Shown here: piece by piece, positions 4,735-45,639 of the stretch | How positions within the stretch are numbered: the stretch's first letter is position 1 | Layout: each line of letters begins with the position of its first letter | From: an uncultured delta proteobacterium | GTDB lineage: Bacteria; Desulfobacterota; Binatia; Binatales; Binataceae | Direction of reading: 5' to 3' | Assembly (NCBI GenBank): GCA_963808235.1 | Contig: CAWEEQ010000004.1 | Location: 2,784,001-2,848,000 of the forward strand | DNA: 64,000 nt | Position numbers and translations under genes: made by a program | Notes under the pieces: generated by a model | What the model saw: the letters and a program-made list of their open reading frames with translations, nothing else | Database searches by the model: none | Told to the model about the DNA's origin: nothing

Positions 4735-4848
4735 GGCCTATTTTCCCCGAAATCCATGCTTGCAGATTGAATTTTAAACTAAAGCGATAGGTCGGCACCA
4801 TACTTGCAAAACCCACAATGATCATACTCAGGATTCCACAGGAACCGG

Positions 4849-5742
4849 TCATCGGCCCGCGCTGCTCGACCTCGATTCGACAGTGAGGACAAAGTGCGTC
4901 AGATACGGCCGGTGATCGTAGCCGTATGCAATCTGCCGAGCGTCGACTAGCGACTCTTCGTCCGACTTTTCGGCTCGCTCGAGGTTCCAGAGTACTTCGT
5001 CCTCCCACATCACCACGCCATCGTGTAGTTCCTCGACTGATAAGACATTCAGCAGGCCAGTCTGCCGGAATAGATCGGCCCACCAGTGCGGCGAATGGTA
5101 TTTGGAGAACTCCTGGTTCCAGAGCGTGGTGCCGTCGTCATACTCATGCGGAAGATCATGCAGCTTGGCCGCTTCGAATTCTTCGTTGAAGCACGGACTG
5201 CCGATGCATAGGCAGCCGCCCGGCTTGAGATGACGGAGCAGATGCGGGAGGAAACCCGGAATCGCGCCAAAGTAATGGATCGCATCCATGCAGAAGATCG
5301 CATCGAAAGAGGACTCCGCAAACGGCAGCGCCTGCGTTACGTCCAGGTGCATCGGGACGATACTCAGACCCGGCTGTTGCGTGCGCGAGTAAAGCTCATT
5401 GGCGGAGATCCACCAATCGACGGCAATGACGTTGACGCCATACTGGCAAGCCAGAAAAACGGAGGTGGCGCCTCTGCCACAGCCCAGATCCATGACGGTC
5501 ATGCCCCGCTTCAGGGACAGAGTCCGCGCCATCCGAGCGGCCAGGTAAAGACCGCCAGGCCCCATTTTGCCGTCGTAGATTTGGGCCCGCGTCAGGCCAG
5601 CGAGCTCCGGATATTCTGCATCCTTCAGCCTGCGGAATTCCGCTTTTACGTTTGCGAGCGACAGCAACTTCACTCCTGATTCGACATCGGCCAGATTGAC
5701 CTGGCGCACACGCGGGACGTTACTTGCGCCAGGAATCTCCAC
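4849..5742 (-). CDS. Class I SAM-dependent methyltransferase
   Basis: VMDLGCGRG motif I; LPFAESSFDAIFC; LKPGG. Confidence 0.85.
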   Translation of the reverse strand: MEIPGASNVPRVRQVNLADVESGVKLLSLANVKAEFRRLKDAEYPELAGLTRAQIYDGKMGPGGLYLAARMARTLSLKRGMTVMDLGCGRGATSVFLACQYGVNVIAVDWWISANELYSRTQQPGLSIVPMHLDVTQALPFAESSFDAIFCMDAIHYFGAIPGFLPHLLRHLKPGGCLCIGSPCFNEEFEAAKLHDLPHEYDDGTTLWNQEFSKYHSPHWWADLFRQTGLLNVLSVEELHDGVVMWEDEVLWNLERAEKSDEESLVDARQIAYGYDHRPYLTHFVLTVESRSSSAGR

Positions 5743-31468: not shown

Positions 31469-32592
31469 CACTGCACCTTCCCGGTCGCGACGATCACGAA
31501 TGCCGTGACCAGCACGTTGAGGAGTCCGAGCGGGACCAGGCCCTTCCATCCAAGGCGCATCAACTGATCGTAACGAAAACGCGGCAGCGTCCATCGCACC
31601 ATGCCGAGGAAGATGCAAAGCACGAGCACTTTGACCAGGAACGCGACGATTCCGAGCAGAGAAATCACAAGCGCGGGGACGGCGAGGATCGCGCCGCCGG
31701 GGAAATGAAAGCCGTCGCGCATGAGCCACGGAAACTGCCATCCACCGAGAAAGAACGTGGTCAGGAGCATCGCGATCAACGCTTGCTCGGCGAGATCAGT
31801 GAGCATGAAGACCGCCTGCTTGCCTCCGGAATATTCGGTGAAGTAGCCGAGGATCAGCTCGGACTCGCTCTCCGGGAGATCGAAGGGCACGCGCTTGGAT
31901 TCCGCGACGCCGGCGACCAGAAAAATTATGAATGCGAGCGGCTGCGTGAATATTCCCCATCGCGGGAGAAATCCGAACCACACACCGCCCTGTCCGCGCA
32001 CGATTTCCTGCAAGTTGAGCGTGCCGAAGGTCATCACGATGGAGACGATCGCGAGCCCCATCGCGAGTTCATAAGAGATCATCTGCGCCGTCGCGCGGAT
32101 TCCGCCGAGCAGCGCCCAGCGATTATTCGAGGCCCATCCCGCTATCGCCACGCCGTACACACCCAGCCCGAGCGTCGCGAGCAGGTAGAGCGCGCCGGCA
32201 TTCAAGTTGGTCGCCTGCAGATCGATCTTGTGGCCGGCGATCGAAATCGTGTCGCCAAACGGGATGATGACGAACGTGATCATCACTGGGAACAGCGCGA
32301 GGAACGGCGCCAGCGTATGCAGGAATTTATCCGCGCCGTCGGGAATGAAATCTTCCTTGGTGAAAAGTTTCACCGGGTCGGCGATTAGCGTGTTGATGAT
32401 TCCCAGGTTCGGCATCCCGAGCCGTTTGCCGATACCGGTGATCGTCGCGCGATTCGATCCGATTCGATCCTGGATGAGCGCGCTTCCCTTGCGCTCGAAA
32501 TAGAGCAGGAAGATCGCCAGGTTCAATCCGACCAGGATCATGATGACCGCTTTGATCGCGCCGGCGATTAGATCAACTGTCACGGGCGGCAA
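31468..32592 (-). CDS. nuoH: NADH-quinone oxidoreductase subunit H
   Basis: ERK..IQDR, ADPVKLFTKE, AQMISYE, PFDLPESESEL, PRFRYDQLM. Confidence 0.96.
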   Translation of the reverse strand: MPPVTVDLIAGAIKAVIMILVGLNLAIFLLYFERKGSALIQDRIGSNRATITGIGKRLGMPNLGIINTLIADPVKLFTKEDFIPDGADKFLHTLAPFLALFPVMITFVIIPFGDTISIAGHKIDLQATNLNAGALYLLATLGLGVYGVAIAGWASNNRWALLGGIRATAQMISYELAMGLAIVSIVMTFGTLNLQEIVRGQGGVWFGFLPRWGIFTQPLAFIIFLVAGVAESKRVPFDLPESESELILGYFTEYSGGKQAVFMLTDLAEQALIAMLLTTFFLGGWQFPWLMRDGFHFPGGAILAVPALVISLLGIVAFLVKVLVLCIFLGMVRWTLPRFRYDQLMRLGWKGLVPLGLLNVLVTAFVIVATGKVQ

Positions 32593-33076
32593 GCTCGTCG
32601 ATAAGTTTGAGAGTGCTTTCTTCGGTCAAATTTTCGATGTACGCGTCCTGGTTCAACTGGAGCATCGGCGCCGTGCCGCACGAGGCCAGGCACTCGACCG
32701 AGCCGAGCGTGAACTTGCCGTCGGGAGTCGTCTCGCCAATCTCGATTTTGAGTTTGCGCCGGATGCAATCCACGATTTTGTCGGCGCCGCGCAATCGGCA
32801 CGAGAGGTTGGTGCATACGTCGAGGATGTAGCGGCCAACCGGTCGTCGATGGAACATCGTGTAGAATGAAACCACTGCCCGCACATGCGCCGGTGGCAAT
32901 TCCATCAGCCGCGCGACGTAGTCCTGGGTCGCGTCGCTCAGCCATCCGAACTCACGCTGCGCGATCCAGAGCGTCGGCAGCAGCGCCGCCTGGCGAGTCG
33001 GATAACGGCTCAGCAGCTCCTGGTACTCGGCTAACGCCGACTGCGAAAATTTGGGGCTCTCGTGGTTCTCAGGCAT
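32573..33076 (-). CDS. nuoE: NADH-quinone oxidoreductase subunit E (2Fe-2S)
   Basis: SFYTMF, CTNLSC, ECLASC; start MPENHES. Confidence 0.92.
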   Translation of the reverse strand: MPENHESPKFSQSALAEYQELLSRYPTRQAALLPTLWIAQREFGWLSDATQDYVARLMELPPAHVRAVVSFYTMFHRRPVGRYILDVCTNLSCRLRGADKIVDCIRRKLKIEIGETTPDGKFTLGSVECLASCGTAPMLQLNQDAYIENLTEESTLKLIDELAARDS

Positions 33077-33298
33077 GGCAGGTATTACGGAACCTTTAGG
33101 GCCGAAAGTTCGGGAATCTAATGATTGGTAGCGAAAATTTAAGACTCGCGCCAGAGGCGAACGGAGACACGCAAGCTTGACCGCGAACTTGCGGGTGCGC
33201 ACGGAACGGGTTATCTAATCGTGGCGATCGCGTCGGCGATTGCGGACACGATTTTACGGTTTCGACTCCGGAGAACCCTCAAAGAGACTGGCGACACG

Positions 33299-33877
33299 AT
33301 GCGAATTATTGCGGGAGAGGCGCACGGACGGCGGCTTAAAGCGCCGCGCGGCCTGCACACGCGGCCGACTTCGGCGCGAGCGCGCGAATCGATCTTCTCG
33401 CGACTGGCGGTGCGGATGGATTTCACCGGCGTCCGCGTACTCGACATTTTCGCCGGCAGCGGCTCACTCGGAATCGAATCGCTCTCGCGCGGCGCTGCGC
33501 ATGTGACGTTTGTGGATTCATCGCGCGATGCCGCGACCGCAATTCGCGCTAATCTGGCCGCGCTTGGGTTTGCCGATCACGCCCGCCTGATCGTATCCGA
33601 CGTGCGGCGCGCACTTGGCAGTCTCGGCGGATTGCACGAGACGTTCGACCTCGTTTTCGTCGATGCGCCCTTCAAGGACGACATCAGCGCGCAGGTTCTG
33701 ACTCTGCTAGGCAGTTTCGAACTGCTCGCGCCCAACGGATGGGTAGTTGTGGAGCAATCCAAGCGCGCGCCCGAAGCGCCGGACGCTCCGCCCGGCCACG
33801 AACGCACACTGATTGCAACGATCGGCGATCATCGGATCGCATATTATCGGCGGCCTGCCGCGCCGGAAAACAATTGA
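33299..33877 (+). CDS. rsmD: 16S rRNA m2G966 methyltransferase
   Basis: MRIIAG, RPTSARARE, DIFAGSGSLGIESLSRGA; upstream of coaD. Confidence 0.93.
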   Translation: MRIIAGEAHGRRLKAPRGLHTRPTSARARESIFSRLAVRMDFTGVRVLDIFAGSGSLGIESLSRGAAHVTFVDSSRDAATAIRANLAALGFADHARLIVSDVRRALGSLGGLHETFDLVFVDAPFKDDISAQVLTLLGSFELLAPNGWVVVEQSKRAPEAPDAPPGHERTLIATIGDHRIAYYRRPAAPENN

Positions 33878-33890
33878 CGGCCAAAACGAG

Positions 33891-34406
33891 ATGACCAACA
33901 AAGCCAAAGAGCGCAGTCCGCTGCTCGCGGTTTATCCCGGCAGCTTCGATCCGATTCACAACGGCCACGTCGATGTGATCCGGCGCAGCGTCGCGATCTT
34001 CGACGAAGTGATCGTCGCCGTCACCTACAATCCGCACAAGGAAGGCGCGCTCTTCACCGGCGACGAGCGCGTCGAAATGATCCGCGAGGTCATCCGCGAC
34101 CTCGAACCGCGCGCCCGGGTCGATAAATTCAGCGGACTGTCGGTGGATTACGCGGAACGAATCGGCGCCAAGGTGCTGATCCGATCTTTGCGCGCGGTTA
34201 CCGATTTCGACTATGAGCTGCAGATGGCCCAGATGAACAAGCAGATGAGCCCCGGCGTCGAGACGGTCTTCATGTTCTCGAATCCGCGCCTGTTTTTCAG
34301 CTCCTCGCACCTCATCAAAGAAGTCGCCGGCTACGGCAAGCGGCTCCCGGAGCTGGTCCCCGAGCTCGTCATCGAACGCCTGCGCGCAAAACTGAAAGTC
34401 CGCTAA
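33891..34406 (+). CDS. coaD: Phosphopantetheine adenylyltransferase
   Basis: YPGSFDPIHNGH, DFDYELQMA. Confidence 0.96.
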   Translation: MTNKAKERSPLLAVYPGSFDPIHNGHVDVIRRSVAIFDEVIVAVTYNPHKEGALFTGDERVEMIREVIRDLEPRARVDKFSGLSVDYAERIGAKVLIRSLRAVTDFDYELQMAQMNKQMSPGVETVFMFSNPRLFFSSSHLIKEVAGYGKRLPELVPELVIERLRAKLKVR

Positions 34407-34533
34407 CGCCGGCTCGTCCGCCTTGCATCGGGACTTTTTTCGCGGGCGGTTCTTTCAAACCGTAGGTCAAGATACAATCTCGTCGACCGCATTCACGAAC
34501 TGATGATTTCGATTTTGATTTTGGATTTTAATC

Positions 34534-35733
34534 ATGCAGAAGCTTAACCGCAGAATTTCCGCTATCAAGCCATCCGCAACCCTCGCCGCCGACGCGCGCG
34601 CGACCGAAATGAAGCTCGCCGGTGTCGATGTGATCTCGCTCGCGGCTGGTGAGCCGGATTTCGACACCCCCGAACGAATCAAGCAGGCCGCGAGCAAGGC
34701 GCTGGCGGCAGGCCAGACCAAGTACACCGCCGTCGGCGGAACCGCGGCGCTGAAGAACGCAATCAAGCTGAAGCTCAAGCGCGACAACCAGCTCGATTAC
34801 GAAGCGGGCGAAATTATCGCGTCGGCTGGCGCCAAGCAGGCTGAGGCCAACGTTATCAACGCGCTGTTCGACGAGGGCGACGAGGTGATCATCCCGACCC
34901 CCGCGTGGGTGAGTTTCGCCGCGATGGTCTCGCTGTCCGGCGCCGAGCCGAAATTCGTGCCGTGTCCCGAAGCGACCGGTTTTATGCTCGAGCCCGACGC
35001 ACTGCGCCGCGCGATTACGCCGCGCACTCGCGGAATCATGCTCAACTCGCCGTCGAATCCAACCGGCGCGGTCTATGGCGCCGAACAACTCTCCGCAATC
35101 GCAAGCGTGCTGGTCGACGCAAACATCTGGGTGATGTCCGACGACGTTTACGAACACATCGTGTATGCGGGATTCGCGCCGCACATCTTCCATCTAGAGC
35201 CGCGCCTCAAAGCAAAAGGAATCGTATTCAACTCGCTATCCAAAACCTACGCGATGACGGGATGGCGAATCGGATTTGCCGCGGGTCCGAAAGAGGCGAT
35301 CGCAGCCGCCGGCCGCTTGCAGAGCCAGAACAGCGGCAATCCCAATTCGATCGCGCAGGCCGCCGCGATCGAGGCGCTGACCGGCCCGCAGGACGAGCTC
35401 AAGCCGATGCTCGAGGCATTTCGCAAGCGCAACGCCCTGGTAGTCGAGCGCCTGCGCCGGATTCCCGGCTTCAAGCTGCCCAACGTGCCGCAAGGCGCCT
35501 TCTATGCCTTCCCCAACGTCTCCGAATTGCTCGGCAGCACCTTCAACGGCAAACCGATCGATGATGGCGACGCGCTAGCCGCTTATCTATTAGATGAGGC
35601 CCACGTCTCCCTGGTCGGCGGCAACGATTTCGGCGCCCCCAACCACGTAAGAATCTCCTACGCAACCTCAACCGAAAACCTGAACGAAGCCTTCGACCGA
35701 ATCGAGCGCGCCGTAGCAAAGCTCAAGCGCTAG
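34534..35733 (+). CDS. PLP-dependent (aspartate) aminotransferase class I
   Basis: GEPDFDTP, NSPSNPTG, SKTYAMTGWRIG. Confidence 0.95.
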   Translation: MQKLNRRISAIKPSATLAADARATEMKLAGVDVISLAAGEPDFDTPERIKQAASKALAAGQTKYTAVGGTAALKNAIKLKLKRDNQLDYEAGEIIASAGAKQAEANVINALFDEGDEVIIPTPAWVSFAAMVSLSGAEPKFVPCPEATGFMLEPDALRRAITPRTRGIMLNSPSNPTGAVYGAEQLSAIASVLVDANIWVMSDDVYEHIVYAGFAPHIFHLEPRLKAKGIVFNSLSKTYAMTGWRIGFAAGPKEAIAAAGRLQSQNSGNPNSIAQAAAIEALTGPQDELKPMLEAFRKRNALVVERLRRIPGFKLPNVPQGAFYAFPNVSELLGSTFNGKPIDDGDALAAYLLDEAHVSLVGGNDFGAPNHVRISYATSTENLNEAFDRIERAVAKLKR

Positions 35734-35851
35734 CGTTTTTAACTGGTTTCGCGCGCCGATGTCGCGCTCTGCGCACCTTGCGACTCTCGCGCGTCATCCG
35801 CGCGGCATTCATGTCGCCTCGCGGGTGAAGGCGCACGCGACAAGCACTATG

Positions 35852-36283
35852 TCAGCGAACCCGCCACGGGGCCGGCAACTCCCCACTCTCGAGCCAGCGC
35901 GCATAGTCGGCAAGAATCTCCGCATGATCGAACGCCAGCGGAGCGGGCGGAGTGCGAGGATCGAACAGCGCCACTGTCTTGGCATCGTCCGCAGCGCGCG
36001 GCGTCCCCGACGCGCGCGCAACATACACAACCGTAATCGTGTGTCCCCGAGGATCCCGATCAGGCCGCGAATAGACGCCGAGCATCGCGCGAATTTCCAC
36101 CGCCAGCGAAATCTCCTCGCGCGCCTCGCGAACCGCCGCATCCTCGACCGTCTCGCCAAAATCGACGAAGCCACCGGGAATCGCCCACCCATGCGGAAAA
36201 TTCTTACGCTCGATCAAAACGATCTTATCGCCAATCTCCGCGATAATGTCGGCGGCGATCGGCGGGCATTGCGGACGCGGCAT
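35852..36283 (-). CDS. NUDIX hydrolase
   Basis: Nudix box [21 protein letters not shown]; RDPR, LAFDH. Confidence 0.93.
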
Positions 36284-36345
36284 GTTCCTAATCTAACACG
36301 CGCGCACGCCGCACGCCGACAAGCGCGGAAAGAAATGGAGACGAA
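36281..36345 (-). repeat. ~65-bp promoter+ATG repeat, copy 1 (native NUDIX promoter)
   Basis: Minus strand ...CTTGTCGGCG...CGTGTTAGATTAGGAACATG; extended -10 TGnTAGATT 6 nt before the ATG. Confidence 0.9.
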
Positions 36346-36347
36346 TT

Positions 36348-36383
36348 GATCAATCGCGGAAAACGCGAGCGCCTCCCGTTTTG
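36348..36383 (+). repeat. 36-bp direct repeat (left island boundary; partner 45837-45871)
   Basis: GATCAATCGCGGAAAACGCGAGCGCCTCCCGTTTTG vs GATCAAGCGCGGAGAACGCGAGCGCCTCCC-TTTTG. Confidence 0.8.
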
Positions 36384-36394
36384 TCCAGCCCAGC

Positions 36395-36577
36395 GCTTGG
36401 GACACCGCTGCTGCCGGAAGGCGCGGCGATGGCGTTGCCCGGCGGGCCGCCGCCGGAACCGTTACTGCTGGTCTGGCCCTGCTCAGACAATGAGCGCACG
36501 AGCTGCGGACTGTAGAATTGGCCGCCGCCGCTATAGTACAGCGGCCCCGGATCGCCAGGTTCCTTCTCGCGGCCCTC
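36395..36577 (-). pseudogene. RHS-core-like fragment A (no tip)
   Basis: GREKEPGDPGPLYYSGGGQFYSPQLVRSLSEQGQ shared with copies B-E. Confidence 0.8.
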
Positions 36578-36673
36578 GCGCATCGCAAACAATAGTCGGC
36601 ACAACAAGAACAAGGGCGACTGGTTAGCTCGATGAGCCGGTGATGGTATCCGCACCGACTGCCCGCGCCGCCA

Positions 36674-36946
36674 TCAGCGGCGACGACTTGGCCGCCGCCC
36701 AAAAGGATTCCGCAAGCGCCATCCGACCGCCGCCAAGGCTCGAAATATCCACCAGGCCAGGCGGAGGTGCCCTTGCCCGGGATGGTTGCTCACGATTTCA
36801 AGCGATTTTTCAATACACTCATCGCATATCGTGCTTCCTCCATCCGCACGAATGATCACCACGACATCCTGTTCTGAGTTCCCGCAGAAGCTACACCGCA
36901 TTTGAGAAGTGGAGCCATCTGGTTCGGTCGATGTTTGCTTCATCAC
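36674..36946 (-). CDS. ClpX-type C4 zinc-finger small protein; candidate immunity for tip B
   Basis: CSFCG..TICDECI; starts 2 nt after the tip B stop. Confidence 0.7.
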   Translation of the reverse strand: MMKQTSTEPDGSTSQMRCSFCGNSEQDVVVIIRADGGSTICDECIEKSLEIVSNHPGQGHLRLAWWIFRALAAVGWRLRNPFGRRPSRRR

Positions 36947-36947
36947 T

Positions 36948-38015
36948 CTAATTCTGTGGCTCAGGTCCGCACACTTGTGGCCTCGGACCGGTCAGGAAGT
37001 GCTCATCGAACATAGCGCAAAGCGCTGAAATAGTAATGACGACAGGCCCAATATCCGTGATTATTCCGGCTGCTGGAGGAAAAAAGGGTCGCCTCCGGCA
37101 TTTGTTCAGGTTGTATACCTTCCCCTTTCCCATCGGTTCTCCCAGATGATCCGGCCGCTGATAGTATTCTGGCTTGTTCTTATCGTACGGAACAACCTTG
37201 TCGGCTGCCAAGACGACCTCACCCGAAACTTCTTCCAGGGGCTTGATGTTTCCTGGCGGCCCCGCTGGGGCGAATCCAAGTTGCTGCGAAGGCAAGTCCA
37301 GTACGGGCGAGCCCTCCGTCGGAATCAGATCCTCGGAGACGCCTATGATTTTCGGATACAGCGGGTGGCGGCGGGAGAGCAACTGGCGCGGAGTTTCAGA
37401 CGAACTGCCGCCGCCGAAAATATCCTCGAAAAAGTTCACCACAAAATCGACTGCGCCACCGATGATCGCCAGCGGCGGTGCAAGGGCTATCGCCACCTCG
37501 GGGTTGCCAAGGGCGAGTCCGAGCACCCAGGCACCCGCGTATATATCCGTACCCACTTGAAGCGCTTGCTGCGTGTCATTGTAGACGCTCTGCGGCGATA
37601 AACCGCCACTCGAACCCGATGGAGGCGAGATCGCCCTTCCCGCCGGGCCGCCGCCGGAACCGTTACTGCTGGTCTGACCCTGCTCCGACAACGAGCGCAC
37701 CAACTGCGGACTGTAGAACTGGCCACCGCCGCTATAGTACAGCGGCCCCGGATCGCTAGGTTCCTTCTCGCGGCCCTGGTACAGGAACGGCCAAGTGTTC
37801 CCCGCGGGGTTCTCGGTCGGATTCCCCGACGGATCATAGGTGTAGGTCGTCGTCGGCTGAGACTGGGTCGAGGTTGAACTCACCAGCGCGATGGTCGAGC
37901 CGGACGCATCGATCAGCGGCACCCAAGGTGCCCCGATTGCCAAGCCCTGCGTACGAACCCGCCATGGCCCGCCGCCGGGACAGGCCCCTGATCGGTTAGT
38001 CCAGCCAATCATCAT
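36948..38015 (-). pseudogene. Orphan RHS-like fragment B with unique C-terminal tip
   Basis: WVPLIDASGS..YTYDPSGN..FLYQGREKE core; degenerate 5' end; unique tail after LIPTEG. Confidence 0.8.
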
Positions 38016-38076
38016 AGAGGATATGAGATCGCAGAGAATGCGAGCACTTAGAGCACCAGAGGGTAGTGACGTGCAT

Positions 38077-38532
38077 TCACGTACCAGAGGCTCCTCCTGA
38101 AGAGCGCGACCGTTCGTTTTGGCGACGAGAGGCCATTCTGAGTCTGACTACCACCCACACCCAGAAACCTGCAAACCAGACTACAATCGCCACGGCTGTC
38201 ACATATGCAGACGTCCAAAATAATTTCCCGGCAGTATCGACCTCGATTTCGACGACAAAGATGCCGATCGCGGCCAAGACACTGCCAGTACCGACCGACC
38301 ACACTATCAGGTGGCGCAAAACTGGCCCCCACTCGGGCCCACGGGCTACTGAAAGCGCGATGGGTATTGAGATACCTACTAAGACGAGAACTTCTACTAG
38401 TGACGCCAGAGCCTTGGGCCAGCCCTGCGGCGCGGCCAGTTCGTATCGGGAACACATGAAGGCGATCGCCATGATTGCAAATCCCAGTGATACAGAGAAA
38501 AAAAGTCGCAACCAATATCGCCTATTGACCAC
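38077..38532 (-). CDS. 4-TM membrane protein; candidate immunity for tip C
   Basis: Four hydrophobic segments; start overlaps the tip C stop; lower GC. Confidence 0.7.
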   Translation of the reverse strand: MVNRRYWLRLFFSVSLGFAIMAIAFMCSRYELAAPQGWPKALASLVEVLVLVGISIPIALSVARGPEWGPVLRHLIVWSVGTGSVLAAIGIFVVEIEVDTAGKLFWTSAYVTAVAIVVWFAGFWVWVVVRLRMASRRQNERSRSSGGASGT

Positions 38533-39411
38533 AGCTTCGCTCCAGCTCCTTGAATTCGGTGGCACACTGGTTGATCAGCAGCACCTCTGAGGCAGCTGTC
38601 GGCGGACCCATTGTTGCGCCGACAATAACAGCGCACGTTCCAGCCGAAGCGGGCCCTGCCGGGAACTCGCCAGCGGTGGCGCACGCTTCTAGCCCGATCC
38701 CCAGACCGCTACCCACCTCGGCAAAATGGAGTCCACATCTGAGAGTCAACTCGACTTCCTCAGCTGCGCAGATGGCTTGACGCGACGATTGCTGCTTGTT
38801 CTCAGCCTTCTGCAGGGGAGGCGTGCGGCAGGGCTGCGGGTCTCCGCAGAATTCCGGCTTCCCCGATGGCGCTCCGTCGGAATCAGACCCTCGGAGACGC
38901 CTATGATTTTCGGATACAGCGGGTGGCGGCGGGAGAGCAACTGGCGCGGAGTTTCAGACGAACTGCCGCCAAAGATATCCTCGAAAAAGTTCACCAGAAA
39001 ATCGATTGCGCCACCGATAAGAGCCAGCGGCGCCACGAAGGGTGGTGCCTCTGGTCCCAGAAAGTATGCGAGCAGGCTGGCGCCCAGATATATATCCGTA
39101 CCCACTTGAAGCGCCTGCTGCGTGTCATTATAGACGCTCTGCGGCGATAAACCGCCGCTCGAACCCGATGGAGGTGAGATCGCCCTTCCCGGCGGGCCGC
39201 CGCCGGAACCGTTACTGCTGGTCTGGCCCTGCTCCGACAATGAGCGCACGAGCTGCGGACTGTAGAATTGGCCGCCGCCGCTATAGTACAGCGGCCCCGG
39301 ATCGCTAGGTTCCTTCTCGCGGCCCTGGTACAGGAACGGCCAACTGTTCGAGCTGCCGTTCACCGTAGGATTCCCGGACGGATCGTATGTGTAGGTCGTC
39401 GCCGGCGGCAT
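38522..39411 (-). pseudogene. RHS-like fragment C (captured ATG; 1-bp deletion ~38872) with Cys-rich tip
   Basis: MPPATTYTYD...LIPTE, then shifted frame APSGKPEFCGDPQPC...NQCATEFKELERSCGQ*. Confidence 0.8.
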
Positions 39412-39473
39412 GTTCCTAATCTAACACGCACGCACGCCGCGCGCCGACAAGCGCGCGACGAATCGGAGACGAA
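39409..39473 (-). repeat. ~65-bp promoter+ATG repeat, copy 2
   Basis: CATGTTCCTAATCTAACACGCACGCACGCCGCGCGCCGACAAGCGCG...GGAGACGAA. Confidence 0.9.
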
Positions 39474-39648
39474 CTACGCGCCGAGTCTGCGATGACTCAG
39501 CGCCCGCATTCAGATGTTTCACGATATTTTGCAGTTTCCGCATCATGTCAACAAGCGAATTTGCGCATCTGAAGGCGAGATAAAAATTCGTCTTTTGCTT
39601 AGCGCGCGATGTCGTTGTCGCGGATGCTGGCGGCATAGCCGCTGCTCG

Positions 39649-40065
39649 TTACTGGCCAGCGCTTGGGCTATGTCGGCGTCCATGGCGCGCGATGCCCACC
39701 ATTCCAAGGGTTACGGCCATCGGAAAGGCGATGCCACTTACCACGAAGAGATAGAGTGGCATCATCGCACCAGGCCACAGCGCTAACACGATCGAGCCGA
39801 GCCCTGCGCTGGCACAGCCAACAACCGGGCCAAGTACCACTGCTAACCGAGCTCTCGGTGAGAGATCGGGCCTTAGCACAAGCGCCCTGATAGACAAAGC
39901 AGTCATCCCGAACAGGCCAAATCCCAGAGCGAGCTGCAGGAACTTCGGCAGAGCAGCATGGGCTCCAGCGACATGCCACGCGAAGAGTGACAATACCAAA
40001 ACGAAAGAGGCTGCCACGAACAGTAGGAGGAGCCAAGACTTCGGTGAATGCTTAACGGGGCTCAT
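39649..40065 (-). CDS. 4-TM membrane protein; candidate immunity for tip D
   Basis: TGATG overlap with the tip D stop; four hydrophobic helices. Confidence 0.72.
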   Translation of the reverse strand: MSPVKHSPKSWLLLLFVAASFVLVLSLFAWHVAGAHAALPKFLQLALGFGLFGMTALSIRALVLRPDLSPRARLAVVLGPVVGCASAGLGSIVLALWPGAMMPLYLFVVSGIAFPMAVTLGMVGIARHGRRHSPSAGQ

Positions 40066-40900
40066 CACTTGCAGCTCTGGTAATAGTTATAGAAGCACCC
40101 GGTTTCGCCGATCTTTTTGGGAATCTCCATCGCGAGTGCACCGGTACAAGCCAAGGGGCCGAACTCCTCAGAACCAAATTCGCACGCATAGATAGCCACG
40201 CTTTCCGGAATGTCTGGAGCTGCTTCCAGGACCCCGAGGCATTTCCGGAGTTCTCCGCGCGCCTGTTGGCACTTCTGACTTTTCTGCTGTTGTGGATTCC
40301 CAGGGGTTTCCTTCCGCAGGGGAGGCGTGCCGCAGGGTTGAGGGTCTCCGCAGAATTCTGGCTTCCCCGATGGCGCTCCGTCGGAATCAGACCCTCGGAG
40401 ACGCCTATGATTTTCGGATACAGCGGGTGGCGGCGGGAGAGCAACTGGCGCGGAGTTTCAGACGAACTGCCGCCGCCGAAAATATCCTCGAAAAAGTTCA
40501 CCACAAAATCGACTGCGCCACCGATGATCGCCAGCGGCGGTGCAAGGGCTATCGCCACCTCGGGGTTGCCAAGGGCGAGTCCGAGCACCCAGGCACCCGC
40601 GTATATATCCGTACCCACTTGAAGCGCCTGCTGCGTGTCATTATAGACGCTCTGCGGCGATAAACCGCCGCTCGAACCCGATGGAGGTGAGATCGCCCTT
40701 CCCGACGGGCCGCCGCCGGAACCGTTACTGCTGGTCTGGCCCTGCTCCGACAATGAGCGCACGAGCTGCGGACTGTAGAATTGGCCGCCGCCGCTATAGT
40801 ACAGCGGCCCCGGATCGCTAGTTTCCTTCTCGCGGCCCTGGTACAGGAACGGCCAACTGTTCGAGCTGCCGTTCACCGTAGGATTCCCGGCTGGATCATA
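40065..40900 (-). pseudogene. Start-less RHS-like fragment D (1-bp deletion ~40376) with Cys-rich tip
   Basis: Begins YDPAGN 4 nt after the previous stop; shifted tip ...KCQQARGELRKC...GCFYNYYQSCK*. Confidence 0.8.
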
Positions 40901-40904
40901 AGCC

Positions 40905-41300
40905 CTAAGCTCTGAGCGCCCTATATGCCGACCCTCCGGAGTAGCACATAAGCGCAACCGCTGGGCCAAATAGAGAAAATAACACAAAGTAGCTGGCTCG
41001 CTCCATGGTCACGAAAACCAGCAGAGCCAGCAATGCCTGCCAAATCGTTAAGCATTGCACCTGTCTTCTCACCGCCATGGAGCGCCTGATCTGCTCCGGA
41101 AAATCGGTCCAACTGATGGCGAACAGAAGTACCGCGTTCGAAAACAGGACGACGTCCCAGCGAAGCACGGGGGTAGCGGCTTGAAGCCAGTTCGACCCCA
41201 GAACAAAGATGCAAGCTATTACTCCAACTATGCTGGCTAGGAGGAACGCCGAAAGGCCGACGGCAAGCAGCTTTTCTGACTTAGGACTGAGTGTTAACAT
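40905..41300 (-). CDS. 4-TM membrane protein; candidate immunity for tip E
   Basis: MLTLSPKSEKLLAV...; starts 10 nt after the tip E stop; hydrophobic. Confidence 0.72.
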   Translation of the reverse strand: MLTLSPKSEKLLAVGLSAFLLASIVGVIACIFVLGSNWLQAATPVLRWDVVLFSNAVLLFAISWTDFPEQIRRSMAVRRQVQCLTIWQALLALLVFVTMERASYFVLFSLFGPAVALMCYSGGSAYRALRA

Positions 41301-41310
41301 CTTTGGTCTT

Positions 41311-42579
41311 CTACTGCCCTTGGTTTGGAACAGGACCCCTCGCACCGGGACCCAGCCAAGAATTGGGAAACGCCGCACCATAGCAGAGCCCTATCCCGCC
41401 GAAGTAAGAGCCGCAGAGAACCGCGGCCTCTACACAGGCAGGGATGGCACCGCCTGCGCACCCGACGCCCGTGATGACGCACCCACCCGTCAACTCCGGG
41501 TTGAACGCGGTAAACACTCCACCGCAAGCAAAGAAAAGCCCCAGTCCCGTCTGCGGCTGCGCCGAAGGAGGCGCCTTGCGGTATTCTGGTTGCGAGTTGT
41601 CCTTGCCAAGCGGGCGCTTGCGGCAGGGCTGCGGGTCTCCGCAGAATTCCGGCTTCCCCGAGGGCGCTTCGTCCGGAATCAGATCCTCGGAGACGCCTAT
41701 GATTTTCGGATACAGCGGGTGGCGGCGGGAGAGCAACTGGCGCGGAGTTTCAGACGAACTGCCGCCAAAGATATCCTCGAAAAAGTTCACCAGAAAATCG
41801 ATTGCGCCACCGATAAGAGCCAGCGGCGCCACGAAGGGTGGTGCCTCTGGTCCCAGAAAGTATGCGAGCAGGCCGGCGCCCAGATATATATCCGTACCCA
41901 CTTGAAGCGCCTGCTGCGTGTCATTGTAAACGCTCTGCGGAGATAAGCCGCCACTCGAACCCGATGGAGGCGAGATCGCCCTTCCCGACGGGCCGCCGCC
42001 GGAACCGTTACTGCTGGTCTGACCCTGCTCCGACAATGAGCGCACGAGCTGCGGATTGTAGAATTGGCCGCCGCCACTATAGTATAGCGGGGCCGGATCG
42101 CTAGGTTCCTTCTCGAGGCCCTGGTACAGGAACGGCCAAGTGTTCCCCGTGGGGTTCTCGGTCGGATTCCCAGACGGATCATAGGTGTAGGTCGTCGTCG
42201 GTGAAGACCCGGTCGAGGCCGCATTCACCAGCGCGATAGTCGATCCTGATGCATCGATCAGCGGCACCCAGGTGGTCATGGTTCCCCCAATCGTATTGGA
42301 GCCGGCCAGCGCCCCGCCGCCGGGGAGATTCAAAAAATCCCAGGAATTTCCTGAACTGTCCCACCATCCCAGAACCGAACCGCCATCGTGCAGAAAATAC
42401 TGGATATCGAAACCTGTCGCTTCCTCCCGCCGTCCCAGCCCATCGTATACCTCAGACGGTATGCCGGCGTTAGCCAACTGGTTACGCGCAGTCCAGGTAA
42501 ACGACAATCCGCTCGCCGGATCATACGTGAGGCTGCTTTCCTTGTTGGTCATCGAGGATACCCCGTTCCAACGCGGCAT
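41311..42579 (-). CDS. RHS-like fragment E, intact frame from the captured ATG, hydrophobic Cys-rich tip
   Basis: YD repeats (LTYDP, FTWTARNQL, VYDGLGRR), core, tip GGCVITGVGCAGGAIPACVEAAVLCG. Confidence 0.82.
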   Translation of the reverse strand: MPRWNGVSSMTNKESSLTYDPASGLSFTWTARNQLANAGIPSEVYDGLGRREEATGFDIQYFLHDGGSVLGWWDSSGNSWDFLNLPGGGALAGSNTIGGTMTTWVPLIDASGSTIALVNAASTGSSPTTTYTYDPSGNPTENPTGNTWPFLYQGLEKEPSDPAPLYYSGGGQFYNPQLVRSLSEQGQTSSNGSGGGPSGRAISPPSGSSGGLSPQSVYNDTQQALQVGTDIYLGAGLLAYFLGPEAPPFVAPLALIGGAIDFLVNFFEDIFGGSSSETPRQLLSRRHPLYPKIIGVSEDLIPDEAPSGKPEFCGDPQPCRKRPLGKDNSQPEYRKAPPSAQPQTGLGLFFACGGVFTAFNPELTGGCVITGVGCAGGAIPACVEAAVLCGSYFGGIGLCYGAAFPNSWLGPGARGPVPNQGQ

Positions 42580-42640
42580 GTTCCTAATCTAACACGCACA
42601 CACGCCGCGCGCCGACAAGCGCGGAAAGTTGCGTGACGAA
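42577..42640 (-). repeat. ~65-bp promoter+ATG repeat, copy 3
   Basis: ACGCGGCATGTTCCTAATCTAACACGCACACACGCCGCGCGCCGACAAGCGCGGAAAG. Confidence 0.9.
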
Positions 42641-42715
42641 TCCTCTGCTTGCGAGGCTGCGAGTTGACTGCCAGAGTTTACCAATTCGACTCTATTCGCG
42701 TTGAAGTGGTGACGC

Positions 42716-43543
42716 GTGAACCTGCAGACAAATGGTCAGCGCCGATTCACGGTGGTCGAGCTGCCGGTGTTTCCGATCGTTAAGGAATCGTTGTTGACGC
42801 CCTTCCGGTATCTGCCTGAGCTGGTGAAATTCGGCTGGATTCCGTTTGCGGCTATTCTGGCGATCGATCTCATCTGCTTTGGCCTGCTGCGTGAGGATGT
42901 TTCCAGAGGCGTGACCGGCGGTATGATGGCGATCTCACATTTCGTTTTGTTCACGCCGTTCTCTGTGGCATGGACGAAGCTCGCGATCAGAGGCCCTCAA
43001 GCGGTCGCGAAGCATCCGCAGTTCTTTTACTCGCGAACGCAATGGCTTTATCTGCTGGCATGCGCCGTGATGATGGCGGCGCTCCTGGTTCTCGCCGGAA
43101 TACCGTACGCCATCCTCCGCTACGGGCAGCGAAACTTTGACAACCAGGTCTCGCTGTTCGGAACGACAATTATGATGCTGGGACTTGGCATTTACGTTGT
43201 CGCATACGTCAGGCTGGCATTCGTTTTTCCTGCGATTGCGATCGGCAGGTACACCGGCATACGAAATGCTTGGAAGCAAACGGCGGGAAATATTGAGCGG
43301 CTCGCGGCAGTTCTGGTGCTCGCGTTCCTGCCCTACTTGATCATCCGTCAGGCGTTCGAATGGTACATGGGATACCATCCACCCGGCGTTGTCGAGGCGT
43401 TCCGGGGATGCATCGACATGCTGCTCATCGCGCTTGCGACGACAGCGCTCGCCGGCCCGGCGCTCGCTTACAAGGCGATAGTGCTCGACCAGCCTCAGGA
43501 TGAAGCCGCCGCGCAATCGATCAACGCCGCCCCGATAGCGTAG
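42716..43543 (+). CDS. Polytopic membrane protein, unknown function
   Basis: ~6 TM segments; RLAFVFPAIAI..AWKQTAGN pattern. Confidence 0.75.
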   Translation: MNLQTNGQRRFTVVELPVFPIVKESLLTPFRYLPELVKFGWIPFAAILAIDLICFGLLREDVSRGVTGGMMAISHFVLFTPFSVAWTKLAIRGPQAVAKHPQFFYSRTQWLYLLACAVMMAALLVLAGIPYAILRYGQRNFDNQVSLFGTTIMMLGLGIYVVAYVRLAFVFPAIAIGRYTGIRNAWKQTAGNIERLAAVLVLAFLPYLIIRQAFEWYMGYHPPGVVEAFRGCIDMLLIALATTALAGPALAYKAIVLDQPQDEAAAQSINAAPIA

Positions 43544-43545
43544 CG

Positions 43546-45639
43546 TCAGCCATTCCACCCGCGCTGCCGCAATGCGTCGAGCGCGACTCCAAGATTATTT
43601 TGTGTCTTCTTCCAGTCACCCGGTAACTTGTCCTTGGTCAACACGGTTAACGCCTGTCGATAATTATCGACCGCCTCTTTCAGATATTTGACTCCCGGCC
43701 CGCGCATCCCGAGTCCTGACAATGCATCGCCGAGATCGCTCTTGGCCCGTGCCCATTGGATCGGATCACTGTCTGGTTTGAATACCTCGAGCGCATCGTT
43801 GTAATTCTGAATCGCCTGCTCGAAGCACCAGGACTCGTTGCTGCTTTCGCCCATCTCGTCGAGCGCATTGCCGAGCGCGGCTTTCAACGTCGCCCACGCG
43901 ATCGGATTGCGGTCGCGCGGTTGCTCTTCGAGACTGGCCCGAAATGCTTTTGCAGCTTCCGGCGGATAGCTCGGGTTGGGTTGGAGATCATTGAGACTCA
44001 GGAGCTCGTTGCCAAGGACCGCCTGAGTACCCGCCCAGCGCCGTCGATCCCAAGCGCGCGGAAATCCGTCCAGTACCTGCCTGCTGATGGCGACCGACTC
44101 CTTAAGATCTTCGACATTTGAGCGAGCCCCGCCGAGTAACTGGAGGGCCTCCGCGAGTTGATTTTGAGCGTCTGCCCAGAGCATCGGATCCGATTGTTTT
44201 CGGTAAACTCTTAGCGCCTCTCTAAAAGCCGCAATCGCGTTCTCGTAACCACCTGCGTTGTCCTCGCGATCCGCCAGCTCGCCAAGCACAGATCCCAGCT
44301 GCGTTTGAGCCGCCGCCCAGCTCATCGAATTGAACTTGACGTCGAAGCCCTTCACTGCGGCGCGACAGTAGTCCGCGGCCCGACGCAGACTGTCAGTGCC
44401 CGCTTCATGATTTGCAATTTGCTGGAACGTACGTCCGAGCTGGAGTTGCACGGTCGCCGAATCGAGCGAATCGGAACGCGCTTGATACACCGCCAACGCA
44501 TTCTTGTATGCGGCCGCAGCCTCCTGCAGAGGCGGCAGTTGAAGATTGAGAGCCGAGAGTTGATTCAGAGCCGCGCCCAGGTTGAGCTCCGCCATCGCCC
44601 ACTCCAGCGGATCGCGTTCTCGCGTCCAACCTTCGTGCGCTCGCCGAAGGTAAGTGATGGCGTTATTCAAAGAATCTTCAGAGTTGAGTTCGAGTCCTGA
44701 GACCCTGCTCGCGATACCGATCGCCAGGTTCACGCGGGCGCGTGCGTCGGCCGTCCACGCGCCGCTCCTTCGAGGATCGTCGGCGAGCGCGCGAGTCTCG
44801 CGAATTATCGGTTCGAGCGCATCGCCAAATTTGAACATCCACTCGCGCATGGTGTCCGCGCTCTGCGTTGCTACGATCAAGCGGATCACCTTGACCAGAT
44901 CGTCCGGCGGCACCTCAGGCAGCTTGAAGTCAGATGGAAGATACACTCCGCCAAACTGCGGATCGGATCCGAATTTCGTTTCGTAGAGCGGCCCAACCGC
45001 CGGACGCGGTGCGCCGCCTGCCCCGCCCCAGATCAACGCCTCCACGCGGATGTTCGTCACCGAGTTGAGCGCATCGAGATGCGCGATCCCCTGCGGACGG
45101 CCGGAGACCGCGATCGTACGATTCAAAATAACCGGCGTGATGTGCAGTCTCGGATCGACATTCGATAGCGCGTCGCGCAGGCGTGCTTCAAACTGCAGGC
45201 CTTTGTCACCTTCGAAATGCGCGATCGCAAAGACGACGCGGATGCGCCACTTTTCGACGTCCGGGTATGGTGCCGACGCCTCTGCGACTTCGGGCGGGAG
45301 CTCGCGGAGCATGTTCGGGCCCTGAAGATAGATTGAAGCTTGCTGCAACAGGAGAAACGGCAGGCATAACAGGGCGGCAATACCGGCGATTCGCCGAACC
45401 GGCTTGTAGCGAAGCTTAAGCCGTCCAATCTGGACGCGTGCTCTTTGCCAGAAGGTAAGGCTCCACACGATCGTGGCGATCAATCCCGGAATTGCGGTTA
45501 CGATGACCAGGTCGATCACCAACCGCGAGCGCGGCAAGACGGCGACGATCACCAGCACGAGCACAAGCGCGGCCGCAAGTGAATCGGTAAGGTTCAGCCA
45601 CGGATACCGCTCGGACAAATACTGACGCGGGGTCTTCAT
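43546..45639 (-). CDS. Membrane-anchored TPR-like repeat protein
   Basis: 3 N-terminal TMs; ~46-aa WAxxxxNLGxAL repeats. Confidence 0.85.
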   Translation of the reverse strand: MKTPRQYLSERYPWLNLTDSLAAALVLVLVIVAVLPRSRLVIDLVIVTAIPGLIATIVWSLTFWQRARVQIGRLKLRYKPVRRIAGIAALLCLPFLLLQQASIYLQGPNMLRELPPEVAEASAPYPDVEKWRIRVVFAIAHFEGDKGLQFEARLRDALSNVDPRLHITPVILNRTIAVSGRPQGIAHLDALNSVTNIRVEALIWGGAGGAPRPAVGPLYETKFGSDPQFGGVYLPSDFKLPEVPPDDLVKVIRLIVATQSADTMREWMFKFGDALEPIIRETRALADDPRRSGAWTADARARVNLAIGIASRVSGLELNSEDSLNNAITYLRRAHEGWTRERDPLEWAMAELNLGAALNQLSALNLQLPPLQEAAAAYKNALAVYQARSDSLDSATVQLQLGRTFQQIANHEAGTDSLRRAADYCRAAVKGFDVKFNSMSWAAAQTQLGSVLGELADREDNAGGYENAIAAFREALRVYRKQSDPMLWADAQNQLAEALQLLGGARSNVEDLKESVAISRQVLDGFPRAWDRRRWAGTQAVLGNELLSLNDLQPNPSYPPEAAKAFRASLEEQPRDRNPIAWATLKAALGNALDEMGESSNESWCFEQAIQNYNDALEVFKPDSDPIQWARAKSDLGDALSGLGMRGPGVKYLKEAVDNYRQALTVLTKDKLPGDWKKTQNNLGVALDALRQRGWNG

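Follow-up and report, generated by a model that had tools for sequence, protein, structure and literature searches.

Tandem RHS cassettes lacking the core autoprotease residues in a Candidatus Binatus-type bacterium: probably a new variant of RHS polymorphic toxins

The 64,000-nucleotide window analysed here, from an uncultured delta proteobacterium of the Binataceae (contig CAWEEQ010000004.1, positions 2,784,001 to 2,848,000), contains five tandem RHS C-terminal cassettes on the minus strand at 36350-42579, or 36277-42641 when the leader repeats of the array are included. To our knowledge, all structurally studied bacterial Rhs toxins rely on an Arg/Asp/Asp autoprotease to free the encapsulated toxin. 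Judging by alignment, these three catalytic positions are lost in the family to which the window cassettes belong, and full-length genes of the same type encode a predicted Rhs shell behind a putative Sec-type signal peptide. We conclude that the window family is probably a new variant of RHS polymorphic toxins that remains uncleaved at the core, with a mode of delivery that we infer and set out below. The five cassettes, and the parts of cassette 1, are listed here with their open reading frames (ORFs):

41311-42579, minus strand: cassette 1, ORF 42579-41311 of 422 aa, which runs from about 130 aa of terminal YD-shell through a degenerate core, the spacer, the hairpin and the junction motif to a hydrophobic tip rich in Cys and Gly
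42019-42132, minus strand: degenerate Rhs core end of cassette 1 (residues 150-187, FLYQGLEKEPSDPAPLYYSGGGQFYNPQLVRSLSEQGQ), from alignment to a canonical core of its own genome and column counts
41941-42018, minus strand: Gly/Ser/Pro-rich low-complexity spacer of cassette 1 (residues 188-213), with an AlphaFold2 (AF2) predicted local distance difference test score (pLDDT) below 50
41767-41940, minus strand: alpha-helical hydrophobic hairpin of cassette 1 (residues 214-245 and 250-271; AF2 pLDDT 80-84; Kyte-Doolittle 19-residue maximum 1.89)
41662-41769, minus strand: junction motif FGG-SSSETPRQLLSRRHPLYPKIIGVSEDLIPDEAPS of cassette 1 (residues 271-306), from column counts, marking the constant/variable boundary
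40070-40987, minus strand: cassette 2, listed ORF 40987-40052 of 311 aa, 1 nt shorter than cassette 1 at the LIP/xE junction
38561-39411, minus strand: cassette 3, listed ORF 39411-38746 of 221 aa, with the same 1-nt shift at the junction and a tip that goes on in another frame
36948-38015, minus strand: cassette 4, 355 aa, in frame throughout, with a 126-aa tip without known family; identical to the database cluster representative P0001
36350-36655, minus strand: cassette 5, a 101-aa truncated remnant in which REKEP...QFYSPQLVRSLSEQGQ and the beginning of the Gly/Ser spacer are all that is left

An earlier note on this stretch, which began at 36395 and thus within the truncated cassette 5, had described a FLYQGREKE core without PxxxxDPxG, followed by a Gly/Ser linker, a helix pair and a (D/G)LIP motif, and this description is correct in every detail, with the module present in four of the five copies. 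The core common to all five cassettes reads ...FLYQGREKE..LYYSGGGQFYSPQLVRSLSEQGQ and continues as ...REKEP.DPGPLYYSGGGQFY(S/N)PQLVRSLSEQGQTSSNGSGGGP, with the QFY[S/N]PQLVRSLSEQGQ motif in 5/5 copies. In 4/5 copies it is followed by a Gly/Ser/Pro spacer, a hydrophobic helix pair, FGG-x-PRQLLSRRHPLYPKIIGVSE(D/G)LIP and then unrelated tips, the junction of these four long copies reading FFEDIFGG(G)SSSETPRQLLSRRHPLYPKIIGVSE(D/G)LIP. The long copies share 90-92% DNA identity over a 300-nt reference block, and homology among the copies extends from the last YDPSG repeat to just past the LIP codons. The array thus has a repeated constant 5' part, a divergent 3' tip and a small ORF behind each window tip. 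A search of 36300-42650 for P....DP.G[LWF] found nothing in any of the six frames, and no PxxxxDPxG occurs in the array; the sole DPxG in any copy is that of the YD-repeat 'YDP[SA]G', upstream of the core. Only the last YD repeat or repeats are kept, with scores of 17.1, 13.2 and 17.4 bits that lie below the RHS-repeat cut-off of 22. A copy of a 69-nt leader immediately precedes cassette 3, whose first element is the last YD repeat, and strands extend to about residue 142 in the AF2 model of cassette 1.

In the sections of PMC13018210 available to us, the Rhs C-terminal protease is described as a bipartite DPxG-X18-DPxG motif with two catalytic Asp residues and a conserved Arg 13 residues upstream of the first, which correspond in BiTLP to R2103, D2116 and D2140; the cleavage mutants named in the titles of PDB entries 8uxt and 6h6f agree with a need for all three. 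When the window copies were aligned with a canonical fragment from their own genome (locus L016, ...ARYYSPTLQRFLSEDPAGFAGGDANLFNYAGNDPINGSDPTG...), Gln fell at both the Arg and the first-Asp positions (Q172 and Q185 of cassette 1), and the stretch with the second DPxG was seen to be replaced by the Gly/Ser spacer, which in cassette 1 stands where a canonical core domain has its second half. Counted over 59 related sequences, the Arg column contains Q37/N17 and the column of the first Asp T19/V17, and the residues at the three protease positions are Q, Q and none in the window and V, I and none in the full-length parent described below. The TIGR03696 core model had no match in any of the five window ORFs (E<=1), in the parent (E<=0.1) or in 59/59 relatives (E<=0.01). 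As two canonical RHS genes of the same genome, used as positive controls, scored 76.3 and 77.7 bits against a cut-off of 32.5, this is not a matter of sensitivity. A canonical paralogue lies in this genome at L014:6177-9728. Since the catalytic residues appear to be lost and the second-DPxG stretch replaced, the toxin is most likely not cut off at the core.

The genome from which the window derives (4.59 Mb, 4 contigs, 93% complete) also holds a full-length gene of this type:

L013:7862-11746 (contig G000:C4), minus strand: non-canonical full-length RHS parent, 1294 aa

This parent begins with a Sec-type signal peptide, MKTQSCFKAATVLIIAVLALLASSQIAQA, recognised by inspection, and its only Pfam matches are DUF6531 and RHS repeats (PF05593, E 8e-15); the repeats are also matched by TIGR01643 (E 3.3e-11). 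Its core, YYSPRLVRPLSEIGPTS, is followed by poly-Gly/Ser, hydrophobic helices and IFGLDLFGGSDQQTPTRKEKQMPGP. Three full-length relatives from public protein collections, P0296 (1313 aa), P0320 (1310 aa) and P0163 (1321 aa), likewise combine a signal peptide with a non-canonical core (e.g. GQFYSPQMVRSLAEAGQ) and an RHPLYP-type module, and in their last 400 residues DPxG occurs only as YD repeats, plus one DPSG in the spacer of P0163. The earlier note had asked whether full-length homologs retain DPxG; the signal-peptide parents of 1294-1321 aa also lack the motif. With 35 aligned homologues as input, AF2 modelled parent residues 31-1175 at a mean pLDDT of 79.6 and a pTM of 0.79; the model is confident to about model residue 1006, which is protein residue 1036 (...SEIG). 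A Foldseek search with this model returned Rhs shells first (8qja, E 1.3e-47, TM 0.61/0.68; 7pq5, 7q97, 8cp6, 8uxt), then teneurins and TcB-TcC, and VIA-align gave Z 25.6 to 9ifo, with a root-mean-square deviation (rmsd) of 3.0 A over 756 residues, and Z 25.6 also to 8uy4. The ranges aligned by VIA stop at model residue 1012 and chain residue 2121, each 5 residues past parent I1037 and BiTLP D2116, respectively, so that the range ends agree with the sequence-based equivalence of the first-Asp position. From the model, the parent shell is predicted to be a normal Rhs closed beta-cocoon.

A 198-position profile of core and module (alignment A2) gave 13000 matches at E<=1e-3, 71 of them at E<=1e-30, among 1.84 billion cluster representatives, and cores were classified in the best 150 of these 13000 matches, which represent clusters at 50% identity. 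Both the Arg and the first-Asp columns are covered by 121 of the 150; 109/121 have none of Arg, first Asp and second DPxG, a further 11 were classed as partial and one as canonical. In the remaining 29/150 one or both columns are not covered, and those inspected, about two-thirds, are canonical cores. A PRQ..RHPxY motif search found the module in 64/109, the remainder being truncated or carrying variants. As the architecture recurs in at least 109 of the best 150 representatives, it lies far beyond chance. A 45-position junction profile (A4) matched 16/47 genomes of the window's genus, usually in 2-5 closely spaced copies, and 2/301 genomes of an even phylum draw, namely the window's own and one weak match (E 6.9e-4); the genus tally includes two unpublished genomes (G018, G023), on neither of which any claim rests. 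Of the named public contigs bearing the junction, nine are titled as metagenome-assembled genomes (MAGs) of Candidatus Binatus, Binataceae, 'Deltaproteobacteria bacterium' or 'uncultured delta proteobacterium' and two as Acidobacteriota or Acidiferrales MAGs; one titled as a Flavobacteriaceae MAG, with a 12-residue match, was disregarded. The family hardly occurs outside a single genus of Candidatus Binatus-type bacteria, and its members are currently named 'hypothetical protein', 'YD repeat-containing protein' or nothing at all. Our literature search found nothing joining Binatota with Rhs, and among the titles and abstract openings retrieved for Rhs, DPxG and autoproteolysis none describes such a protease-less family.

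These counts bear on whether the non-canonical type might be decaying junk, the recombination debris of RHS genes that have no core and no function. The two frameshifted tips, the stump and the missing full-length head gene of the window would fit such decay, as would the many database members that are short fragments. However, strong conservation of the motifs extends over at least 109 clusters at 50% identity, there are intact full-length ORFs with signal peptides (1258-1321 aa), tips carry recognisable toxin domains, and the type recurs through the genus, usually as arrays. We therefore regard decay as most improbable.

The relation of the two cassette types to their shells points the same way. 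Classification of 56 full-length relatives yielded 13 non-canonical, 4 mixed and 37 canonical proteins and 2 without a match, and all 13 non-canonical proteins are among the closest shells, with none among the 32 distant ones (P0168-P0199). The mixed protein P0159 (...GGRYYSPTMGRMLSLQDPLSSSGG) keeps Arg and the first DP and has no second DPxG, the other three mixed relatives have canonical-type cores whose second motif lies beyond the scan window or is missing, and P0152 and P0155, scored as non-canonical, retain only Arg; by their sequences, P0159, P0155 and P0152 look like intermediates in the degeneration of the protease. In a maximum-likelihood tree of 37 shells, from which the core and all behind it had been removed, canonical and non-canonical states interleave within one 17-row clade and require 4-5 changes; non-canonical P0152 and canonical P0126 are sisters with branch lengths of 0.11 and 0.09. 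Both types also occur together at locus L013 of the window's own genome:

L013:5386-6885, minus strand: canonical orphan (RFLSRDPLGLSGG...GTDPTGA), immediately behind the non-canonical parent and the 251-aa ORF that follows it

The simplest reading of these patterns is C-terminal displacement, in which the same shells would have received whole cassettes in exchange, core end included. In that case a single shell and export route must serve both cassette types, which argues for function rather than decay.

We folded cassette 1 by AF2 with 58 relatives. The mean pLDDT was 57, low as expected of a shell fragment; helices 214-245 and 250-271 reached the values listed above, and a short helix, 290-294, was placed in the PLYPKII stretch. 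The Kyte-Doolittle 19-residue mean before FGG was 1.6-2.0 in 9/9 members tested, in which the distance from core to FGG is 90-109 residues. Overt glycine zippers are seen in the helices of some relatives, e.g. GAIIGAAVGAPLAGAAIGGVVGAIVGG: the Pfam families PF13441, PF13488, PF13436 and PF05433 matched 5, 5, 2 and 2 of 82 members (E<=0.01) and NCBIfam NF053611 matched 3/59, with no Gly-zipper match in Pfam for the window copies. Conservation of the junction was counted in the 59 sequences, which had been picked for having the module, and is given in cassette 1 numbering:

Junction conservation, part 1: F271 54/59, G273 58/59, P279 58/59, R280 55/59, H284 50/59
Junction conservation, part 2: R286 56/59, H287 59/59, P288 55/59, Y290 56/59, G295 53/59
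Junction conservation, part 3: L300, I301 and P302 43-44/59, E304 44/59

Position 274 reads G35/S21 and position 275 S29/D16, and a further FCGDPxPC...PLQK stretch is present in a subset only (about 14-19/55). The combination of hairpin, FGG and PRQLxHxRHPLYP had no entry in Pfam (82 members), NCBIfam (59 members) or the PDB sequences, and the ESM Atlas had no match either, in keeping with the earlier claim that the module is undescribed. The best PDB-sequence hit of the module profile, AcrZ (E 0.45), is a chance match to a small membrane helix; the best ESM Atlas hit, glycine reductase selenoprotein A, had a score of 0.84, below the 0.9 lead level, and was discarded; no hit reached 0.85. None of the 20 Pfam families matched by the 82 members is a pre-toxin or peptidase family, and a Pfam search for the pre-toxin domains and releasing peptidases named in the sections of PMC3482391 available to us (PT-VENN, DUF637, HINT, ZU5, caspase and others) found none in these members or in the window ORFs.

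Versions of the module also occur in canonical relatives. In L016 a shorter version follows the second DPxG (...SDPTGNCPECIVDLTVVLIGAAAGGSFSIQYFLDPFGIFSGSGQPTIPRQERHPP), in P0126 the module again stands after the second DPxG (...TDPTGMDPIVIPTIYVVYTLAALSAGVGAWWDPLGIFTGGGEVEIPREQQHKAH), and P0115 and P0142 are arranged likewise, each with a helix, FGG and P-R-[QE]..H behind an intact DPxG...DPxG core. Because it follows intact DPxG sites in these four proteins, the module belongs to the cargo side, is either older than the loss of the protease or unconnected with it, and is not a stand-in for it. In the canonical proteins it would be part of the released fragment, which is compatible with a role after release in membrane insertion, translocation or secondary processing. 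The earlier proposal that the module belongs to a different route of release or delivery can accordingly be kept in part: as a substitute for the protease it does not stand, and a role in translocation or processing is plausible in view of the hydrophobic, glycine-zipper-like hairpin and the invariant His of the junction.

The same observations bear on a second explanation, which corresponds to the different release route of the earlier note, namely that release was kept and moved, with the FGG...PRQLxHxRHPLYP junction either self-cleaving or a dedicated processing site in which the invariant His and Arg are catalytic or serve recognition. The conservation of H287 (59/59) and of G273, P279, R286 and Y290 (at least 56/59 each) would suit such a site, as would its place exactly at the constant/variable boundary and the run of a hydrophobic helix into small residues (G-G-[GS]), which by inspection resembles a signal-peptidase-type site. 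Yet the module, which also stands behind functional-looking DPxG motifs in canonical relatives, is not needed as a substitute, no conserved nucleophile follows GG (positions 274 and 275 vary as given above), no peptidase family was found by Pfam in the 82 members, and the genome has no C39 peptidase, which speaks against a cut of the double-glycine type. Cleavage relocated to the junction thus seems to us improbable. Processing as a double-glycine leader was considered separately and rejected: FFEDIFGG, which we take to resemble such leaders in part, is only partly leader-like, and the search for PF03412, positive in 7/14 control genomes, found no C39 peptidase in the window's own genome.

The tips of relatives carry, by Pfam in the 82 members, phospholipase A2 (PLA2; 5 members), RlpA/DPBB, glucosaminidase, Ntox44 (2 members), Ntox37 and eCIS_core domains; a cassette on another contig of the same genome ends in a PLA2-like domain, and hydrophobic peptides rich in Cys and Gly form several of the tips, that of cassette 1 among them. 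A signal-peptide ORF stands behind the RlpA-like tip of one relative. The window tips matched no Pfam family, and the candidate immunity ORFs of the window matched none above threshold save the zinc-finger ORF listed here:

40905-41300, minus strand: polytopic membrane ORF (MLTLSPKSEKLL...) of about 131 aa, candidate immunity gene of cassette 1, starting 13 nt past the cassette-1 stop codon; no match in Pfam, and named a candidate from its position
39649-40068, minus strand: candidate immunity gene of cassette 2, 139-aa membrane ORF with weak Pfam matches only
38077-38565, minus strand: candidate immunity gene of cassette 3, 162-aa membrane ORF with a sub-threshold NnrU match only
36674-36946, minus strand: ORF behind cassette 4, 90 aa, ClpX-type C4 zinc finger (Pfam PF06689, 45.1 bits against a cut-off of 27)

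A ClpX-type zinc-finger ORF in the immunity position is an unusual partner for a toxin tip. Another unusual neighbour, an Rce1-like/CPBP membrane protein (PF02517, 46 bits; L038:5751-6449, plus strand), is found downstream of some tips. Homologues occur in L041, L044, L045, L048, L050 and L052, which amount to only about four independent genomes as loci are duplicated, and the protein could be an Abi-type immunity protein or a processing protease.

The diversity of the tips bears on a third explanation, in which the toxic part is the constant hairpin, acting as a pore former of the glycine-zipper kind like pore-forming Rhs C-termini, and the tips are accessory or specificity parts. Transmembrane-grade hydropathy, the Gly-zipper matches of a minority of members in Pfam and NCBIfam and the small membrane proteins encoded as candidate immunity genes in the window would all agree with a pore. 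The tips, however, bear different bona fide toxin domains (PLA2, RlpA-like, glucosaminidase, Ntox44, Ntox37), each with a different downstream ORF; a toxic hairpin would call for a single, constant immunity gene, and no gene is found next to every cassette; and two diverged hairpin alleles occur within one array. We doubt this explanation about as strongly as that of a relocated cleavage site.

With confidence a little above even, we favour instead a functional RHS cassette type that is uncleaved at the core, its cargo tethered by the spacer, its hairpin a membrane-insertion element and its junction a recombination handle and perhaps a protease site. On this reading the window array consists of tandem spare ('orphan') C-terminal cassettes of a Sec-exported RHS/YD-shell polymorphic toxin family that is independent of type VI secretion systems (T6SS), in which Arg and the first Asp have been substituted, the second-DPxG stretch replaced by a Gly/Ser spacer of 35-60 aa and the protease lost. 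Behind the spacer follow a glycine-zipper-like hairpin, a junction of about 35 aa, FGG-x(4-6)-PRQLxHxRHPLYPxILGxxxGLIP[DT]E, the variable tip and a small immunity-type gene. The cargo would stay tethered and leave the shell, or hang from it, on the spacer, as in metazoan teneurins. The hairpin would enter the membrane and present mostly envelope-acting tips (phospholipase A2, peptidoglycan hydrolases and Cys-rich hydrophobic peptides), and the junction would act as a homologous-recombination handle for tip exchange and possibly as the site of a trans-acting protease. In canonical Rhs proteins the tip-exchange handle is DPxGL. What the sequences and models show is the anatomy, the loss of the three catalytic residues, conservation in more than 100 clusters, full-length parents, the predicted fold of a parent shell, the module behind canonical cores too and the exchange of cassette types between nearly identical shells; that cleavage is absent, how the chain is arranged, that the hairpin inserts into a membrane and any processing are what we infer. 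A bolder version, in which an RHS lineage gave up autoproteolytic release for a Gly/Ser leash out of the shell, a glycine-zipper hairpin into the membrane and cutting of RHPLYP by a trans-acting protease, perhaps of the target cell or intramembrane, is in our judgement rather unlikely; if true, it would be a second, undescribed mechanism of release and delivery for YD-shell toxins. We know of no such tethered-leash arrangement so far outside animal teneurins. The part behind the core amounts to 24-25 kDa in the two fully in-frame cassettes (1 and 4), and the T6SS Rhs cavities of 32,000-35,000 cubic angstroms reported in the accessible text of PMC10684867 hold toxins of 15-16 kDa; judged by the sizes of these other cavities, full encapsulation of the cargo looks tight.

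Several points weigh against the tethered, uncleaved model. Spacer, hairpin and junction have a pLDDT of 21-23 in the parent model, and AF2 places none of them in or out of the shell. The sequence would also be compatible with another cis-cleavage chemistry, and a site of action in the cytoplasm, which the Ntox44 and Ntox37 tips may have, is less in line with a model directed at the envelope alone. The tips of the window, and its candidate immunity ORFs apart from the zinc-finger ORF, have no family match to support the model. All members derive from metagenome assemblies, the case rests on sequence and prediction, and the junction counts carry the selection of their 59 sequences. No full-length gene heads the window array, nothing longer than an 871-aa fragment stands at the head of the arrays in three other genomes, and in the window 2/4 tips are out of frame and one copy is a stump. 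Orphan rhs cassettes are usually a silent reservoir, and the window copies may be one as well.

In cassettes 2 and 3 the missing nucleotide lies at LIP/xE (about 40381-40390 and about 38885-38893, respectively), and the tips are intact in the other frame, where they read DGAPSGKPEFCGDPQPC...; that of cassette 2 (DGAPSGKPEFCGDPQPC...YNYYQSCK, then stop) stops exactly at the start codon of the following ORF and has a match in the in-frame tip of a relative (L021). No public contig bridges the junction frameshift by 31 letters on both sides, and one record ends 7 nt beyond it. The 1-nt shift may be a real frameshift, an assembly error or something programmed. In another relative (L038:4369-4896 and 4734-5399, plus strand) the reading frame changes within the Gly/Ser spacer and so splits a cassette; assembly errors that shift the frame in low-complexity stretches may be frequent among these MAGs. 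The array also contains a short direct repeat:

36277-36345, 39405-39473 and 42573-42641, minus strand: three copies of a 69-nt repeat with 80-100% identity, spaced by 3128 and 3168 nt

The repeat comprises the 5' leader and the ATGCCGC start of a NUDIX gene (36283-35852) downstream of the array, and its copies provide the start codons of cassettes 1 and 3. The hairpin alleles are paired, cassette 4 with 2 at 98% and cassette 3 with 1 at 97%. Together with the spacing of the repeats, this pairing suggests that a two-cassette unit ending within the NUDIX start was tandemly duplicated. The leader might enable shell-less expression of cassettes 1 and 3; a promoter and terminator scan of 35800-42900 was uninformative, with 3 promoter-like sites against 2.4 expected. 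Features upstream of the array and of the full-length parent are as follows:

42716-43543, plus strand: 275-aa polytopic membrane protein without Pfam family, upstream of the array
43546-45639, minus strand (45639-43546): 697-aa TM-TPR protein, upstream of the array
L013:11758-12336, minus strand: ORF of 192 aa upstream of the parent, with one RHS repeat and an IPT/TIG domain
L013:12628-14109, minus strand: ORF upstream of the parent encoding a 493-aa Kelch-repeat protein

The 275-aa membrane and TM-TPR proteins recur beside such arrays in L039, L040, L042, L048 and L050, some of these loci being duplicates, and the flank may be a conserved insertion hotspot or reflect a functional partnership. 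Distant RHS relatives have Kelch and Big domains fused N-terminal to the shell, and the 192-aa and Kelch ORFs may be split-off N-terminal parts of the parent.

A protease-less family of more than 100 clusters, on shells that also take canonical cassettes, offers a natural experiment on whether YD-shell cargo can leave without self-cleavage, and how. According to the accessible text of bioRxiv 2024.02.26.582050, in silico Rhs surveys that cut at DPxG drop proteins without the motif. A profile of hairpin and junction would annotate proteins now unnamed or 'hypothetical' and mark toxin/immunity cassettes in an uncultured soil lineage.

Set against known systems, the family resembles canonical Rhs proteins (RhsA, Rhs1, Tse5, Tse15, TcC) in its predicted YD-repeat beta-cocoon (Foldseek E 1e-47 and VIA Z 23-25.6 for the parent model), DUF6531 in the N-terminal region, a variable tip followed by a small gene, arrays of orphan cassettes and C-terminal displacement. 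It differs from them (TIGR03696, DPxG-X18-DPxG) in that Arg and both Asp residues are absent, the last 25-30 or so core residues are replaced by the Gly/Ser spacer, and the boundary of tip exchange is the LIP[DT]E junction and not DPxGL. Unlike T6SS Rhs effectors, the parents of the family carry a Sec signal peptide (by inspection) and not PAAR/VgrG, and no T6SS markers were found in the genome: TssC (PF05943), Hcp (PF05638) and PAAR (PF05488) were not detected in the 93%-complete assembly, which has three secretin genes that do not by themselves identify the export route. A short, strongly conserved motif at the constant/variable boundary is shared with the pre-toxin and junction motifs described in the available sections of PMC3482391 (PT-VENN of CdiA, DPxGL of Rhs), whereas 0/82 members match any pre-toxin family; 5/82 resemble the glycine-zipper two-helix domains PF13441, PF13488 and PF05433, which the window copies do not match. 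The best structural match, BiTLP (PDB 9ifo), is like this family a bacterial YD-shell toxin of Sec type that is independent of T6SS; BiTLP, however, keeps R2103, D2116 and D2140, is cleaved and holds its toxin inside the shell, as stated in the accessible part of PMC13018210, and the family described here lacks all three residues. The same source, as far as available, describes metazoan teneurins as proteins whose uncleaved C-terminus exits the shell, with the toxin-like domains outside. Like these, the family would have a YD shell without C-terminal autoproteolysis (Z 21-24 and rmsd 3.5-3.9 A for the parent model). Unlike them, it is bacterial, polymorphic and accompanied by immunity-type genes, Pfam finds no NHL, FN-plug, EGF or Tox-GHH parts in the parent, and the exit of its C-terminus is our proposal. 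The family may thus represent a bacterial parallel to the uncleaved state of the teneurins.

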